This document shows positions 25,343 to 61,009 of a DNA stretch of 64,000 nucleotides, piece after piece; positions within the stretch are counted from its first letter, which is position 1; each line of letters begins with the position of its first letter. The position numbers were made by a program, and so were the translations under genes. This stretch comes from a phage. Location of the stretch: the sequence record PZ445527.1, one strand, 5' to 3'. The notes beneath the pieces are model-generated. The model was not told the DNA's origin and ran no database searches. It was given only the letters and a program-made list of their open reading frames with translations.

Positions 25343-26659
25343 TTATTTACCACGGGAAATAGAGTAAATTCCATAGCGCAGCGCATCACAAAGGTGAGAG
25401 TTAGCATCATGACGTGGTTTTTCACGTGATAATTTCTCTTCACCTTCTTGGAAATCCCACTTATAGTTCTGCAATGCATGGATTAATGAGGAACATGAAG
25501 CATCTACAATAATCTTACCCTGTTGGAACAGTGCTTGCAGGCATGCTAGACCATCTAAGACAGATTTTTTAGCTGGAGCCGATGCAATTTCATGCTCATA
25601 AGCTAAGTCCTGGCGGAACTGAGCTGCTGCAGAGTCAACAAAAATACGATCAACTTTATAACGATCTATACAGTGCTGAATATAAGCAGCATGCTGAGCT
25701 GTAGTTTTCTCCGCCTGCTGGTATTCTTCTAACACATAGTAGGTATCTGTATCGTAATGATATTTAATAGTAAGAACTGCTGTAGGATCACGATAACCAA
25801 CGTCAATACCAAGCAACGTTTCGAATGCTTCATCATCTTTAAAGAAGTGACGCATACCTTTGAGGTCTTTAACATGATCGATAGCATTAAAGGTATCAAA
25901 GATCTGGCCTTCGAATACAGAGAAGTCAGCCTCGTATTCCTGGCGGAAGTAGTTTTTACTAACTGTACGACGTGCTTCCTCAATGTCATTCAGATCAGCA
26001 CGAGGATTATCACGATATGTACCATGAATAGATACCCAGTTAGGTAACGTATCATCGAATCCGTAGGCGTAAAACTCTTTAAACCAGTTACCCCCACGAG
26101 GGGTGGAAATAAATAGAGCCTTAGAATTAGGTTTATCTAGAGTAGGACGCAGCTGAACCCTGAAGGCATCACCACCCACGTCGGAAATTGCCGCCTCGTC
26201 AAAGATGATAAAATCATATGAACGCCCAACTGCGGAGTCAGCCTGAGCCGCGGAAGCTAGTTTAAATAGAGAACCATTAGCTAACTCAATCTCTTTATCT
26301 TTAGCGTTTTCACGTTCGGTTTGTAGGCCATACTTCTTAATAAGACCACGAATCTGAGACCATCCGATATTAGCCAGTGAATAGTTAGGGGCAACTACTA
26401 GTACCTTCACATTAGGTTCCAGCAATTTTAGGAACCCAAGTGTATACGCTATAAAAGACTTGCCTACACGGCGTGATACACACGCCGTTACAAAACGATG
26501 TCTAGGGTCTTCTAGGGCATTGATAATTGCTATTTGAGGGCCATTAGGTGTAATACCCTCTTGTGCTAGTATTCCAGAAACAGGTAGACGGAAGAAACGT
26601 TTGTCTATTCCGAAATCAATAACGTCTACTGTATTAACATAGGGTCTTGATACTTCCAT
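25343..26659 (-). CDS. terminase large subunit
   Basis: 438 aa; Walker A-like VSRRVGKSF; C-terminal nuclease-like region. Confidence 0.88.
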   Translation of the reverse strand: MEVSRPYVNTVDVIDFGIDKRFFRLPVSGILAQEGITPNGPQIAIINALEDPRHRFVTACVSRRVGKSFIAYTLGFLKLLEPNVKVLVVAPNYSLANIGWSQIRGLIKKYGLQTERENAKDKEIELANGSLFKLASAAQADSAVGRSYDFIIFDEAAISDVGGDAFRVQLRPTLDKPNSKALFISTPRGGNWFKEFYAYGFDDTLPNWVSIHGTYRDNPRADLNDIEEARRTVSKNYFRQEYEADFSVFEGQIFDTFNAIDHVKDLKGMRHFFKDDEAFETLLGIDVGYRDPTAVLTIKYHYDTDTYYVLEEYQQAEKTTAQHAAYIQHCIDRYKVDRIFVDSAAAQFRQDLAYEHEIASAPAKKSVLDGLACLQALFQQGKIIVDASCSSLIHALQNYKWDFQEGEEKLSREKPRHDANSHLCDALRYGIYSISRGK

Positions 26660-27141
26660 TACTTTTTACCTCCAGTAGCTAGGGAAGTAATTAGGTCCAT
26701 GTAGTTTTGATCCCCGGCTCCAGCAATAATGTTATTCTGGATATTGGTCTGATTAGCAGGAGCTCGAACGGCAGCTTTAGCTTTTTCTAACTCTACCATC
26801 ATCTTCATTTCTTCCATCTTCATCTTATGTGCTTTCCAGAGAATATCCATAATATCCTGGTCAGAACCCATGCCAGTTTCTTCTAACTCTTCTAGCTTGC
26901 GCTTAATAACTTCGTCTAGAACACCAAATAAACGATCTCTATTACGGAATCCGCTTTCCATAAAAATATCGTTTAAGTAGTTCTTAACTTCACTACGATT
27001 CATAATATCTCGGAAAGCTATTTCTGACATTCCAAGACTACGTGCGGCAAAAGGCACATCACTGCCGCACTGTAAATAAGCTTCAATCACATCCATCCCT
27101 TCAGGGGACATAAGATCTGGTACTAATACATCATTTGCCAT
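26659..27141 (-). CDS. putative terminase small subunit / DNA-binding protein
   Basis: 160 aa with N-terminal HTH-like segment; directly upstream of and overlapping terminase large gene. Confidence 0.45.
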
Positions 27142-27151
27142 ATTTCCTCCT

Positions 27152-28939
27152 TTAGGTAAGGCGTTGAATTGTTACTCTTAATCTAGGTAAGAAGACGGCG
27201 GCGGATTCATTTGCATGTATAACTACACCCAACTCAGCGTTACCGTTACCCAAATTTTTAATAGTATAAATAAACCCACTTCTAGTAAATGTTAAGTCAT
27301 CTGGTCGACTAGCCCACTGTTGTGTATAACTATAGGAAGCTGTAGTATGAAATGGCACCAAATGATTAGGAGGTAGAGTTAATATTTGATGAAATATCCC
27401 ATCACCTCCTGTATAACTTTGCTGCCTTCTCCCCTGCACCTGCCATGCAGTGCCACCATATGTTCGTATAGGACCCCCTGCTGTATTAAGGTTTCCAGCA
27501 ACCACCTCAGTAGTTAGGATTACTGTAGAGTTTGCATTTGGTAGCCCAAGACTTACTGTGGATAAGGCTACATACTTATTACCTGTACCTGGGTAAGAAG
27601 GGTTTATGTCATCACCTATGTAAGTACTAGCTACGTTATTCGGTAGTAATCGTAAAGGTACTGAAGAAGGCCCCCAAACGACCCCGTGCTCATTACCTAT
27701 AGTATTATTGTTGGAATTAACATACCATTGTTTACCGGCAGAGAATTTGTAAATACTTATCTGAGACTTAGAACCCCCATAATTTACGGGAGACCATAGA
27801 GAGCCATTATTAGACCCCACAATTTCGCATCTTGCTGTAGTATCTCCAAATACTCCAGTATAAGCAACGTTATTTCCAATATATTCCATATCAGGTCTAG
27901 ATGATAAGTTACCAAAGGCATTCTGATTAATGAATTTGTAACTAGTATTTGGAAGACTAACACCTTTTATAGTAAAGTTAGAGGGGCTTATAAGAATATC
28001 GGATCCAGTAAATGGGTTACTAGCAACGCTCATACCACCATTAGAATATCTAAGGTTCAGCACATACCAGATAACTTTGGTTGGAGTAATATTATAACTA
28101 TCTTGCACATACTGCTTCTTTGCTGCTTGTGATGCTAAGTTAGACGTTGAGCCTCTACATACATAAACCTTATCTGGATAGGTTGAAGAATTATATAGTA
28201 CACTAACATTACTTGGCGTAGTACCCTTTTTACCAGCGTATCCACGTATATTGGAGTTACAAACATAAAACCAAGTATGCCCCCTTTTCCCCGCCCCTAT
28301 AGGAGCCTGCCAGTTAGGGTGCCAGAAGTCAACATTACCACTATTTATCGATACTTTAGATGCTCCGGCTGGAAATCCTGCTAGAGTCCACGCTCTGCCC
28401 ATAGCTTCGGCGGCGTACGCCCCTCCTGGTCTGTATAAGTTAAACCCAGAAGCCTGTGATATAGTACCGCCAGTACCTTGTCTAGCTATTGATTCTTCAT
28501 GCCCTAGACTAGAGTTATAAGTATAAGTACCATGTGCTAAACTATTACCAGATGCAAAAGCTGATGTAAGACCTACTTCAGCACCAGCCCTACCAATAGG
28601 AGGGTCTTCAAAAAATGCAAGAAATTGTCCAACCTGGGATTGAGTACCGTTCAAAAAACCACGATGAGTACCATTAATTTCAACAGCGGTTAGTATAACT
28701 CTACCAGGATCGTTGCTCTTTAGATTAGCTATTACAGAAGGCATTTGGCACACAAAGAACCCATTACCCGCGTTACTTAATGCACTCTCATACGTACTCT
28801 CGACTAGAACAAATGGCATATCAGAATGAAATATAGTATTGGCGTTAGGAGTTTTGTGAGCATTAATATCCCCACCATTCACCTTGTTTAGTGATAATAC
28901 AGTTTTACCATCACTATATTTTCCAGCGAAAAAACCCAT
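27152..28939 (-). CDS. receptor-binding tail protein (pb5-like)
   Basis: 595 aa Gly/Ser/Thr/Asn-rich; divergently paired with lipoprotein gene as in T5 oad-llp. Confidence 0.65.
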
Positions 28940-28964
28940 ATAATCTCCTATTATAAAAATGTAT

Positions 28965-28993
28965 TTGCTTTCATCCCTCTATTTTGCTATAAT
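28965..28993 (+). promoter_or_regulatory. sigma70-like promoter for llp-like gene
   Basis: extended -10 TGcTATAAT (28985-28993), -35-like TTTGCT 17 nt upstream, RBS GGAGAG before ATG 29025. Confidence 0.5.
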
Positions 28994-29024
28994 ATATTCA
29001 TAAATTAGAAATGGAGAGATAAAT

Positions 29025-29291
29025 ATGAAAAAGTTTGTGACTGCACTAGTTGCCGCAGTTATGTTATCTGGTTGTGCACCTGCCCCCAAACCATTTTGTA
29101 CGGGATTTGTAAAATCTTTTGGTGGTGCGGGAGAGGAACATTACGGCCTCAAGGTTCAAAAAGTTCGTATTAAGGGAGATCGCTTTCCAGTAGTACAGCT
29201 CCGTACTAAATTTGGGTGGTGGGATCTCAGTCAGTTTGACCTTAAATATGGTGATTGTAAATTTAAACTAGAGCAATCTAATTACCTGTAA
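29025..29291 (+). CDS. llp: Llp-like lipoprotein (candidate receptor-blocking superinfection exclusion)
   Basis: 88 aa; signal peptide with lipobox LSGC; divergent from receptor-binding protein gene. Confidence 0.65.
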   Translation: MKKFVTALVAAVMLSGCAPAPKPFCTGFVKSFGGAGEEHYGLKVQKVRIKGDRFPVVQLRTKFGWWDLSQFDLKYGDCKFKLEQSNYL

Positions 29292-29467
29292 TTAGTATAA
29301 AGCAAAAAGACATCTAAGTAAACTAAATTTTTTATTTCTTGGATGGTGTACTGGCAGAAACCACTATATGAGAAAAGTTGAAGTCCTTCTAGGAGTTCAC
29401 AGGCACGGTTGGTTGCGCACAAATTGTAGAATATTTTAAATACCACACTTATAGGAGCATAAAAGAT

Positions 29468-29596
29468 ATGTCAAACAAGAGAAAGAGCAGACGTGGAGAA
29501 GTGTATGATAGTTGGATTAATAGCTTTGGATTCGGAACTATCCTATTCTTTATTTTCGTAGGTTTTTGGTTGGCAGCTATGGCGGGGTGGATTTAA
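29468..29596 (+). CDS. small membrane protein (42 aa)
   Basis: RBS AGGAG 7 nt upstream of ATG; one TM helix; stop overlaps next start (TAATG). Confidence 0.45.
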   Translation: MSNKRKSRRGEVYDSWINSFGFGTILFFIFVGFWLAAMAGWI

Positions 29597-30296: not shown

Positions 30297-31031
30297 TTAT
30301 GCGACTTTTAGTTTCTCAATATATTGTTGCGGGCTGCAACTATATTCTGCGCGTTCTTCCTCGGTCATACTTTCCCAACATAATTGCAAACGGTCGGCTA
30401 GGAACTGATAATCATTATCATCGTCGAGAGATTCATCGATAAAGGTTTCACCTATCAATGTAACGCCGATTGATAGAATATCGTTAACGGCTTGCGCGTC
30501 CAGCGTTTTAAATCCGTATGATGCCGCCGCCGCCAATACTCCTTTATGGTCGTCGATCATCGTGAAATCAGCGTTCGGATATAGCTGCTTAAATAACTCA
30601 AAATAATGGCTTTTATATATAGCGTCTTTACTGTGGTATATTTCGCTAACTTTATCAGCTTCAAAATATTTATGTAGTGTATCGCGGGAAAATACACGGA
30701 TATTACTATCCCCACGCCCTCGCAGTCCTTGCTTGCGTAGGTAATAATAATCTGATTTGCTCATTAGTCGAGCGGTGCAAATAATGTTTAACGTGTTGGC
30801 GTCATTCATGCATTGGCGCATATATGTAACAAGCGGCAATAGTGTGTCTTGCATTATTAAATCATGTTTACACGCTTCATTCTTATACTTATTTAGATCT
30901 AGATTGCCCTCACTATCAAAGCAAGGCGCTACGCGATGGAATGAATTAACGACCGTGCCGTCAAGATCCCAAATCATGACGCGGGAAATATGCGGGAAAT
31001 TACGGGTAATATTCGTTTTAACTTGATTCAT
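30297..31031 (-). CDS. dmp: 5'-deoxyribonucleotidase (HAD family), T5 Dmp-like
   Basis: 244 aa; HAD motif I WDLDGTVV; size matches T5 Dmp. Confidence 0.8.
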   Translation of the reverse strand: MNQVKTNITRNFPHISRVMIWDLDGTVVNSFHRVAPCFDSEGNLDLNKYKNEACKHDLIMQDTLLPLVTYMRQCMNDANTLNIICTARLMSKSDYYYLRKQGLRGRGDSNIRVFSRDTLHKYFEADKVSEIYHSKDAIYKSHYFELFKQLYPNADFTMIDDHKGVLAAAASYGFKTLDAQAVNDILSIGVTLIGETFIDESLDDDNDYQFLADRLQLCWESMTEEERAEYSCSPQQYIEKLKVA

Positions 31032-31570: not shown

Positions 31571-33235
31571 TTACGCAAAAAATTTACCGTTCTTAAAGTC
31601 GATCAAAGTGCGCTGACCGTTTGCATAGGTAATTAAATGCGTTTGCGTCCAGCTTGACGCGCCAACGTTGTAACCCATGTCCAGACTACCAGCCACGCCG
31701 GCGGTATATACCCCGCCGTAAATGCTGGCGGTATGAGTGTGCCCCGTGTTTAATTTGCCCAATTTCTTAAATTGCTTCGGATTGCCGCGGCTCCCGTTTA
31801 TGCCATTGTGACCGTGTACGCCGCACTCAATGCCTGCAATCTTGAAAGATTGGTCAGTCGTTAGAAAAATGGCGTTAAATTCACAACCTGCAACCTTGCG
31901 CAACGCATAATCAAGCACGTTGAAAGTATCGTCTTTTTCTGCAATAGCTCCGTAAATTGCAGCATTAAGGCGGTGATATAGTTCCGCGTTCGCTGGGTCG
32001 TCTTTAATGTTAGCATTACGATCATCAAGCCAACGGGATAGCGCCAAATCGTGATTCGATTCAACAATGATTGTTTGAGAAAAATCGCGCTCCATCGATT
32101 CCAGCACGCGACCGGTATCGATAAGATCATCCAGAATTTTATCACGTCCAGCGGCGTACTGTTTTGCTAGGAATACACCGCTGGCGCGATTGTGATGGTT
32201 GCGTGATGTAAAATCATGCACGTCATGCACGAATTGATATTTTGGTTTAAGAATATCAAGCAAGCTATTTTCGCCAGCCCATGACGCTGCGGCGCAATCG
32301 TCATCTAATTTTTCGGCGTGTATGTCACCATATTGCAAGCCTAAAACATGCCCCGACGTTTCATAGCATCCGGCGGGAGTGGCGCAAATATTCAAATCGT
32401 AAAACACGCCGCTTTCATCCATCGTTTCAAGCTGGCGAACAAAAAATTCTCCGTCTTCGTCGAACTCGACAACAAGCGCGCCAAAGTTATGCAGCGCCTC
32501 CGCTTTCTGTCCTGCTTTCTGCTGGATGTAATTTTTTAGCGTTGCCGTTCCGGTTGAATACATACGGCGCACTACTTCACCTTTTAAAGCTGGAACGCTT
32601 TCGGCGGTGATTTTAGCCGCTCCAATTGCCAGACCTTCAAGATTAAGCGCGGTTGCAGTTTCAGCGAATCCAGAAAGCGGATAGTCTGCGGTAGGTAAAA
32701 CGTTAATTTCAGCCATGAAAGCAAAGCGGCGGTTATTTAAAAATACATTCTTATTGCAGATATATTTGTCAAAAGCGGAATCATATTTGATTCCGTTGGC
32801 GCCCTCGCCATTTTGAAAACCGTTTTTGTTATAAATAAACTTGCTAACCAGCAAATCAGCGCCGATAAATTGGGCATATTGCTCCAGTGAGGCCAAAAAG
32901 TTTTTATGCGGGAACGTATTATTCTGAATCGATGTAATAATAAAGCGTTTTCCCTGCTTTACTTCCCATTGCTCGATCGTGCTAGAAATAACTCCAGCGG
33001 CTTCAGGGCGGTCATCGTTTTTTATGGCTTTTGCTACTTTCGCCGCTTTTGGTTTCGCTGGTTTATTTGCTTCCAGCCAGTCACAAATCGCAGTGGAATG
33101 TTTTGCAGTATCGTAAACCGCTTTTGATATATCGTCGCATACTTCCAGCTTAGTAGCGCGCAGACGTTTACCGTAGAAATTGAAATCAGCGGCAAGGTTG
33201 AGGATCTGGGTTTGTTTTTCTGCGGAAATAACCAT
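31571..33235 (-). CDS. A1: A1-like pre-early protein (calcineurin-like metallophosphoesterase / nuclease)
   Basis: 554 aa; metallophosphatase motifs GDIHAE, HDVHDF, ESNHD, GHTH. Confidence 0.8.
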   Translation of the reverse strand: MVISAEKQTQILNLAADFNFYGKRLRATKLEVCDDISKAVYDTAKHSTAICDWLEANKPAKPKAAKVAKAIKNDDRPEAAGVISSTIEQWEVKQGKRFIITSIQNNTFPHKNFLASLEQYAQFIGADLLVSKFIYNKNGFQNGEGANGIKYDSAFDKYICNKNVFLNNRRFAFMAEINVLPTADYPLSGFAETATALNLEGLAIGAAKITAESVPALKGEVVRRMYSTGTATLKNYIQQKAGQKAEALHNFGALVVEFDEDGEFFVRQLETMDESGVFYDLNICATPAGCYETSGHVLGLQYGDIHAEKLDDDCAAASWAGENSLLDILKPKYQFVHDVHDFTSRNHHNRASGVFLAKQYAAGRDKILDDLIDTGRVLESMERDFSQTIIVESNHDLALSRWLDDRNANIKDDPANAELYHRLNAAIYGAIAEKDDTFNVLDYALRKVAGCEFNAIFLTTDQSFKIAGIECGVHGHNGINGSRGNPKQFKKLGKLNTGHTHTASIYGGVYTAGVAGSLDMGYNVGASSWTQTHLITYANGQRTLIDFKNGKFFA

Positions 33236-44544: not shown

Positions 44545-44590
44545 ATGAACTTATTATACAGAATTTTGAGGTTTAAAGCAACTGAATTTT
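44545..44590 (-). promoter_or_regulatory. early sigma70-like promoter
   Basis: on - strand TGTATAAT (reverse complement of 44553-44560), A/T-rich upstream, then AATTAATGAGAGAGG RBS region. Confidence 0.45.
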
Positions 44591-46830: not shown

Positions 46831-46927
46831 TTAATCCTCCTATCAATCTATATAAATATTATACCAAAATTTTTAGCAAAAAGCAAGTAAAATAAAAGCC
46901 TGATCCGCTAAGATCAGGCTTGGTTTA

Positions 46928-58816: not shown

Positions 58817-59185
58817 AAATTCTTTAATTTACTAAGGCTATTAGCTCGGCGTAACTACAGCACCTTCGCTTCAAGCGGAAGGAACCGCGTCATCTCGCAA
58901 ACCCAATACACTATTCAGTTGCCGCTGAATCTAGTGGACTAATCTAGAACTTCTCCCGAGTCGTAGGGATCGTGCTTTTTGGCAGCCAGTCCTAGGTCGA
59001 GCTAATACCTTAGTGAATTATGATGAGGATTTCTCCCATATCAATTTATATAAATATTATAACAAGAAATTAATCATCAAGCAATTGAGTTTTTCTTGAA
59101 ATTGGTAGCGGGTTCCAGTACTGCCCTGGACTTACTTAGCTTATGAGACTAAGAAGAACTCTATGCCTTCCACCCGCAATTGTTT

Positions 59186-59802: not shown

Positions 59803-59879
59803 TTTGGCGCGACTGATGGGATTTGAACCCACATTCCCTCCCGTGATAGGGGAGTACCATTACCAAGCCAGCCACGGTC
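59803..59879 (-). tRNA. tRNA with atypical anticodon loop CTATCAC (anticodon uncertain)
   Basis: CCA encoded, T-arm GTGGG-TTCAAAT-CCCAT, acceptor 6 of 7 paired, perfect anticodon stem CTCCC/GGGAG. Confidence 0.45.
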
Positions 59880-59890
59880 GCATAATTTAT

Positions 59891-60670: not shown

Positions 60671-61009
60671 TAGCTTCTCCAGTTCAATTTATGTAATTAT
60701 TATATAGAACTTTTGGGAACTAAGCAACTACATTTTTTAAGAATTTGATGCCTTTCTTTTTCTTCTTATATTTCCACGTTAATGGATTCTGTCGATTATG
60801 AACGCTTGAGATCTTTGTCTCGTCAAAGTTCTTCAATATCATGTAATCACAAGATAATTGTTCTAGTGGAATGTGATCACCGTCAAAAGCGTATACATAA
60901 GGCTGTTGACTAGCACGATAATGATAGACTTTGTTAATTCTACGTTTCAGCGACTTATCCGCGCAGTAAATAAAGAAGTTTTAAGGGTGCATCAGCATCT
61001 CCTTCAATT

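Follow-up and report, generated by a model that had tools for sequence, protein, structure and literature searches.

The phage sequence PZ445527.1, a single strand of 64,000 nucleotides (nt) that we call the window, very probably carries a host-recognition module of the BF23 type between positions 27152 and 29291. In this module, a receptor-binding protein (RBP) that would bind the vitamin B12 transporter BtuB is paired with a lipoprotein, Llp, that would block it. The module is already known: it is a near-identical copy of hrs-llp of phage BF23, which was sequenced and functionally dissected in 2006. Its 2,140 bp of DNA align along their entire length with BF23 hrs-llp (DQ097178; OR083247, the 2023 complete genome) at 96.4% identity, and near-identical copies occur in dozens of deposited genomes of Salmonella and E. 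coli phages. Gene structure, promoter sequence, lipobox and identity with the experimentally characterized proteins of BF23 and DT57C were established in this analysis, while BtuB dependence and the exclusion by Llp of BF23-type phages but not T5 come from the literature on identical or near-identical proteins.

An earlier note on this DNA had described a pb5-like protein of 595 amino acids (aa) encoded divergently from an 88-aa lipoprotein with the lipobox LSGC. The lipobox and both open reading frames (ORFs) were confirmed, each ORF with an ATG start and a good Shine-Dalgarno sequence, and the two diverge across an 85-bp spacer. The module is made up of the following features:

27152..28939, minus strand: receptor-binding tail-tip protein (hrs/oad; pb5 homologue of the BF23/BtuB type), 595 aa; from the ORF, identity to BF23 Hrs and PHROG 4815.
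28945..28949, minus strand: Shine-Dalgarno AGGAG of the RBP gene, 5 nt 5' of the ATG; plus-strand ctcct read from the sequence.
28940..29024, no strand: divergent intergenic control region, 85 bp; from the ORF ends.
28965..28970, plus strand: −35 hexamer TTGCTT of the llp promoter; from a pattern search and the minus_35_signal of llp in DQ097178 (1888–1893, offset 27077).
28985..28993, plus strand: extended −10 TGcTATAAT of the llp promoter; TATAAT at 28988–28993 is the minus_10_signal of llp in DQ097178.
29013..29018, plus strand: Shine-Dalgarno GGAGAG of llp, 6 nt before the ATG at 29025; read from the sequence.
29025..29291, plus strand: llp, precursor of the receptor-blocking (superinfection-exclusion) lipoprotein, 88 aa; from the ORF, identity to BF23 Llp, PHROG 1119 and Pfam LPAM_1.
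29025..29072, plus strand: Llp signal peptide, residues 1–16, ending in the lipobox residues L-S-G before Cys17; from Pfam LPAM_1 and comparison with BF23.
29073..29288, plus strand: mature Llp, 72 aa, beginning at Cys17 (predicted to be lipidated); from sequence comparison.

The RBP was 98.5% identical to BF23 Hrs AAZ03642 (586/595 residues), 98.7% identical to Hrs of the 2023 BF23 genome (8 substitutions) and 99.2% identical to the RBP of NBSal005 (5 substitutions). It matched PHROG 4815, 'receptor binding tail protein', over residues 1–595 (E = 7e-266), and its identity to the RBPs of other BtuB-dependent phages was 87% for HildyBeyeler, 84% for SPC35 and 70% for DT571/2. A Pfam search matched no family to the RBP, and the sole matches in a PDB sequence search were to T5 pb5 (8a8c_B and 8b14_B, E = 3e-49). 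High identity to T5 pb5 across the full length had been named in the earlier note as evidence against its proposal; the two proteins aligned over their full length with many gaps, at only 31–32% identity (E = 9e-58), and the proposal thus withstands that test. Comparison with RBPs of the T5, BF23 and DT57C types, as proposed in that note, grouped the window RBP with BtuB-dependent phages. The grouping covers BtuB binders and T5 (FhuA); a direct comparison with the FepA type (H8) would be immaterial given 98.7% identity to BF23.

BF23 Hrs recognizes BtuB and T5 pb5 recognizes FhuA, according to PMC4728585 and PMC10644984, which cite Mondigler 1996 and 2006 and Buxton 1971. BtuB dependence has been shown for BF23, DT57C, SPC35 and BASEL relatives (PMC4728585, PMC8594841, PMC8624392). 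In the BASEL study, the RBPs of the Markadamsvirinae formed three clusters predicting BtuB, FepA or FhuA as receptor, with the great majority targeting BtuB (PMC8594841). Where the window RBP departs from that of BF23, its residue is in every case one that also occurs in other BtuB-class RBPs. Because of the near-identity to BF23 Hrs, the literature on the BtuB-class cluster and the presence of all variant residues within that class, we predict from sequence, with high confidence, that the receptor is BtuB. The earlier note had expected a receptor other than that of T5 on the grounds of RBP length, giving about 640 aa for T5 pb5. That length was accurate (640 aa), and the receptor does appear to differ, given 98.5–98.7% identity to the BtuB-binding Hrs of BF23, but length alone is no proof of this. 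Shorter RBP length by itself was rejected as a sign of a new receptor; BtuB-class RBPs span 585–595 aa.

The small ORF proved to be the cognate Llp, as the earlier note had proposed. Its product was identical to BF23 Llp (AAZ03643) at 87 of 88 residues, the one difference lying in the signal peptide at residue 6 (T6 in the window, I6 in BF23; T6I), and the mature 72-aa protein was 100% identical to those of BF23, NBSal005, HildyBeyeler (Bas33) and DT571/2. The N-terminus, MKKFVTALVAAVMLSG followed by C, is a signal peptidase II signal peptide with lipobox L-S-G-C and Cys17, and passes Pfam LPAM_1 (23.4 bits against a cut-off of 20), the sole Pfam match of Llp. The protein also matched PHROG 1119 ('Cor superinfection exclusion protein') over profile positions 1–78 of 78 (E = 4.6e-26). 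C17, C25 and C78 (mature C1, C9 and C62) were invariant in 12 BF23-type Llp homologues, and the AlphaFold (AF2) model, with a predicted local distance difference test score (pLDDT) of 83, is a small five-stranded beta-barrel.

Experiments on the DT57C gene, whose mature product is identical to that of the window, bear on function. When DT57C llp was expressed at a leaky level, DT57C, DT571/2 and BF23 plated more than 100-fold less well and T5 plated as before, and resistant mutants in the same cloning study carried btuB lesions (PMC4728585). BF23 Llp blocks BtuB on infected cells, according to Mondigler 2006 as cited in PMC4728585 and PMC10644984, and its expression too has been reported to make cells resistant to the cognate phage (Mondigler 2006, in PMC4728585).

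An extended −10 promoter belonging to llp itself, also described in the earlier note, agrees with the BF23 annotation. The spacer contains TTGCTT, a 17-nt gap and TGcTATAAT, in which the −10 hexamer is perfect and carries the extended −10 TG; in DQ097178, exactly these two hexamers are marked as the −35 and −10 signals of llp. A direct pattern search for exact TTGCTT-N17-TATAAT returned five copies in the window against 0.06 expected by chance, at 28965–28993 (+), 44553–44581 (−), 46858–46886 (−), 59056–59084 (−) and 60699–60727 (−). All five have an A-tract upstream and a TTCATAAATT or TATAAATTGA box downstream, (T/A)TCATAAATT-like, and in these flanking motifs the llp promoter matches the four other copies, which are early-region promoters of the window. 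We take the five to resemble strong T5 early promoters such as PN25, and they look like members of that class, the llp promoter included. A generic sigma-70 scan of the window did not list the llp promoter, because its −35 scores only 3/6 against TTGACA, and the scan as a whole gave no more promoters than chance would (8, with 9.0 expected) and no terminator. In the BF23 genome record, the corresponding spacer is annotated with divergent predicted promoters.

Two further observations concern promoters elsewhere. Within the tRNA cluster, the copy at 59056 has no Shine-Dalgarno sequence and ATG within 200 nt and may drive tRNA transcription. Directly 3' of llp, the 176-bp llp 3'/intergenic stretch at 29292–29467 is of the BF23 type and partly lacks a counterpart in T5; an annotation in the BF23 genome record, 'promoter absent in T5 phage', falls at the equivalent position.

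The module would be expected to work as follows. The RBP (Hrs, Oad or pb5 homologue) would be located at the tip of the straight central tail fibre, and its irreversible binding to the TonB-dependent transporter BtuB would lead to DNA ejection. Transcription of llp would begin early from its own promoter of the T5 early class, as suggested by the class of the promoter and by the early expression of T5 Llp, for which Decker 1994, listed among the references of PMC8624392, has 'expressed early during infection' in its title. Signal peptidase II would cleave the Llp precursor before Cys17, and the Cys would then be lipidated. Under the Lol rule, Ala at position +2 sorts a lipoprotein to the outer membrane, and the Ala found there in Llp would direct the protein through the Lol pathway to the inner leaflet of the outer membrane. 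Mature Llp would bind BtuB and render it unusable as a receptor, with the outcome that superinfection by BtuB-dependent phages would be excluded and progeny would be spared inactivation on cell debris. By analogy with T5, the block would probably come from the periplasmic side, with Llp jamming the plug and the extracellular loops folding inward allosterically. In the crystal structure of T5 Llp with FhuA, Llp is bound at the periplasmic face with the plug in a non-native conformation, and the inward-folded extracellular loops EL7 and EL8 lie over the pb5 site; a Cys11–Cys58 disulfide constrains the termini of T5 Llp (PMC9586334).

Nothing was found that contradicts the identification of the module. 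Several points nonetheless weigh against this account of it. A periplasmic allosteric mechanism has been shown solely for T5 Llp and FhuA; a PDB sequence search with Llp returned chance matches only and no solved structure of a BtuB-blocking Llp; and the promoter and terminator scan detected no intrinsic terminator after llp. The RBP also carries 8 substitutions relative to the BF23 genome, which may affect fine host range.

Through these few substitutions the RBP might have acquired a different target, either another outer-membrane protein or a BtuB variant specific to Salmonella, creating a new specificity. Several of them (8 relative to the BF23 genome, 5 relative to NBSal005) fall in the variable regions 101–275 and 526–550, and the closest relatives include Salmonella and E. 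coli phages alike. RBP divergence within the BtuB class is concentrated in residues ~100–275, overlapping the N-terminal ~200 residues considered to take part in recognizing the receptor (Golomidova et al. 2016, who cite earlier mapping; PMC4728585). However, the substituted residues are all already present in other BtuB-class RBPs, and RBPs of only 70% identity (DT57C, DT571/2) still use BtuB (PMC4728585). The partner Llp is an unchanged BtuB blocker, and E. coli and Salmonella are both hosts of BF23 (PMC10644984). We therefore regard retargeting as extremely improbable and retain BtuB as the predicted receptor. How closely the two genes are bound to each other is a separate question. The earlier note had called the pair a co-evolving module, a description that held between receptor classes and failed within the BtuB class. 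In its strict form the pair would be a tightly co-evolving unit, in which changes in the RBP have counterparts in Llp and neither gene is inherited without the other. Between classes both genes do change, T5 (FhuA) having an RBP of 31% and an Llp of ~24% identity to the BF23 type. Within the BtuB class, however, an identical mature Llp occurs beside RBPs of 70–99% identity, as the following comparisons with the window illustrate:

NBSal005: RBP 99%, Llp 99% (mature identical).
HildyBeyeler: RBP 87%, Llp 98% (mature identical).
DT571/2: RBP 70%, Llp 98% (mature identical).
SuperGirl: RBP 76%, Llp 68%.
JLBYU43: RBP 66%, Llp 68%.

RBPs of ~66–70% identity are thus found with an Llp of 98% (DT571/2) or of 68% (JLBYU43). 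The Llp sequences in all phage records form two discrete identity classes (182 records with at least 90% identity, 176 of them at 95–99%, and 213 at 60–80%), whereas the RBP spreads over several identity classes. The within-class comparison is a small sample and suggests incongruent RBP and Llp trees. Such uncoupling fits the recombination point reported between hrs and llp (Golomidova et al. 2016, PMC4728585). The RBP and Llp do not touch each other and, if the analogy with T5 holds, would bind opposite faces of the receptor; residue-level co-evolution is thus not expected. A tightly co-evolving unit is accordingly a distinctly improbable description. Co-evolution clearly appears to hold only at the level of the receptor class, the RBP and Llp within the BtuB class appearing uncoupled and to recombine independently.

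The relation between the two types of Llp bears on how BtuB would be blocked. T5 Llp was about 24–30% identical to the window Llp, with marginal pairwise significance. It too matched PHROG 1119, end to end (E = 1.1e-19), and a three-cysteine layout is common to both types (mature C1, C9 and C62 in the window; C1, C11 and C58 in T5). Mature Cys9 and Cys62 of the window Llp are positionally equivalent to the Cys11–Cys58 pair of T5, and are candidates for a disulfide; the two types may also share a small beta-barrel fold. It is quite plausible, though the balance is even, that they have diverged within a single family of disulfide-stapled, SH3-like beta-barrel lipoproteins and share a mechanism. 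If so, the BtuB blocker would also act from the periplasm by jamming the transporter plug, and a near-invariant mature Llp beside variable RBPs would reflect a conserved periplasmic face of BtuB as against variable extracellular loops. Alternatively, Llp might block BtuB in a manner unlike that of T5 Llp on FhuA, for example by occluding the RBP site or interfering with TonB coupling, with the two Llp types analogous and not homologous. The literature indeed calls the two proteins non-homologous (PMC4728585, PMC10644984), and their charges are opposite (isoelectric point of the mature protein 9.3 for the window Llp, 5.6 for T5 Llp). An hhalign comparison of the Llp family with T5 Llp aligned only residues 1–29, that is, the signal peptide and first Cys, which does not establish homology of the mature domains at the sequence level. 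A Foldseek search of the Llp model against the PDB returned nothing at E ≤ 0.001 and did not recover T5 Llp, of which 8a60_B and 7qjf_A are the structures for fold comparison. With the shared profile and cysteine layout on the other side, we consider a different mechanism rather unlikely.

The genes around the module place the window among T5-like phages. On the minus strand, directly downstream of the RBP gene, lie the terminase genes, identified from their ORFs:

26659..27141, minus strand: terminase small subunit (terS), directly downstream of the RBP gene.
25343–26659, minus strand: terL.

The order RBP-terS-terL on one strand with llp divergent is common to the window, BF23 and T5, and this genomic context is the stated criterion for pb5/Hrs RBPs of the Markadamsvirinae (PMC8594841). 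On the 3' side of llp, four small ORFs for single-pass membrane proteins are followed by the terminal-repeat genes dmp (30297–31031) and A1 (31571–33235), in an order that agrees with BF23 and T5. The 24 kb around the module were ~92–94% identical to BF23, vB_Sen_I1 and NBSal005. Because of this identity and the matching local gene order, the source of the window is judged to be a BF23-like Tequintavirus (a T5-like siphovirus), close to but distinct from BF23. A search with Rfam over the whole window found no RNA elements in or near the module, the tRNAs being its sole matches.

Some observations outside the module were also made. Beyond A1 lie early genes and then a tRNA cluster at 57.4–63.8 kb with 12 tRNAs. 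A single copy of the ~10-kb terminal repeat thus connects the late and early ends of the genome, a layout that points to a collapsed or circularized assembly of a linear, terminally redundant genome. In the tRNA-Asp gene at 59805–59881 (−) the anticodon is ATC (A34), where GTC is usual; the same anticodon A is found in the 'Bacteriophage 5' tRNA-region record ('codon recognized: GAU'), and phage HdH2 has GTC. Just after the 5' acceptor arm the window tRNA-Asp has T where both of these relatives have G, and an A that seems to leave the acceptor stem with a C-A mismatch, as read from the alignment and not from a fold. The first ORF 3' of llp (29405–29596, +) encodes 42 aa in the window, in T5.159 and in HildyBeyeler, and 63 aa in both BF23 records. 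ACG replaces the upstream ATG of the 63-aa version in the window, and a good AGGAG Shine-Dalgarno sequence precedes the conserved start; the BF23 records probably annotate an N-terminus that is too long.

In practical terms, the phage is predicted to use BtuB as its terminal receptor and to exclude other BtuB-dependent T5-like phages. This is useful for predicting host range and for designing phage cocktails, as loss of btuB would give cross-resistance to all BtuB-dependent phages. The locus offers no new biology; its mildly interesting by-products are the uncoupling of RBP and Llp in the BtuB class and the hints of a shared Llp ancestry and mechanism.

Among known systems, the closest is BF23 hrs-llp (DQ097178, Mondigler, Ayoub & Heller 2006; BF23_00170 and BF23_00171 in OR083247), which has the same order, orientation, lengths (595/88 aa), spacer and promoter hexamers. 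It differs from the window by 8–9 substitutions in the RBP and the T6I substitution in the signal peptide, with ~94% genome identity over 24 kb. In DT57C, DT571/2, SPC35 and the BASEL phage HildyBeyeler, all BtuB-dependent and T5-like, mature Llp is identical or differs by 1 aa and the RBPs belong to the same BtuB cluster; the RBPs of DT571/2, SPC35 and HildyBeyeler diverge (70%, 84% and 87% identity) while Llp stays fixed.

The oad (pb5)-llp pair of T5 (PDB 8a8c, 8b14, 8a60 and 7qjf) has the same architecture, terS/terL neighbours and a divergent TTGCTT-N17-TATAAT promoter of the early type, although, unlike in the window, this promoter lacks the TG of an extended −10. The RBPs of T5 and the BF23 type are homologous over their full length, that of the window being 45 aa shorter, whereas T5 uses FhuA and not BtuB and its Llp gives a significant match at the N-terminus only. 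When the spacer, llp and the downstream region of T5 and BF23-type phages were aligned, the sequences were near-identical at the RBP start, around the promoter and from ~30 nt before the next ORF, and were unalignable across llp and its 3' region, giving the module sharp boundaries. A more distant parallel is found in the Cor lipoproteins of T1-like and phi80-like phages (PHROG 1119), small outer-membrane lipoproteins that block a TonB-dependent transporter and share a profile with the window Llp. Cor proteins, however, target FhuA and come from much smaller phages, where their genes lie downstream of one for a gpJ-like tail-tip protein, and a Cor-annotated gene (JMPW2) had only 29.5% tblastn identity to the window Llp.

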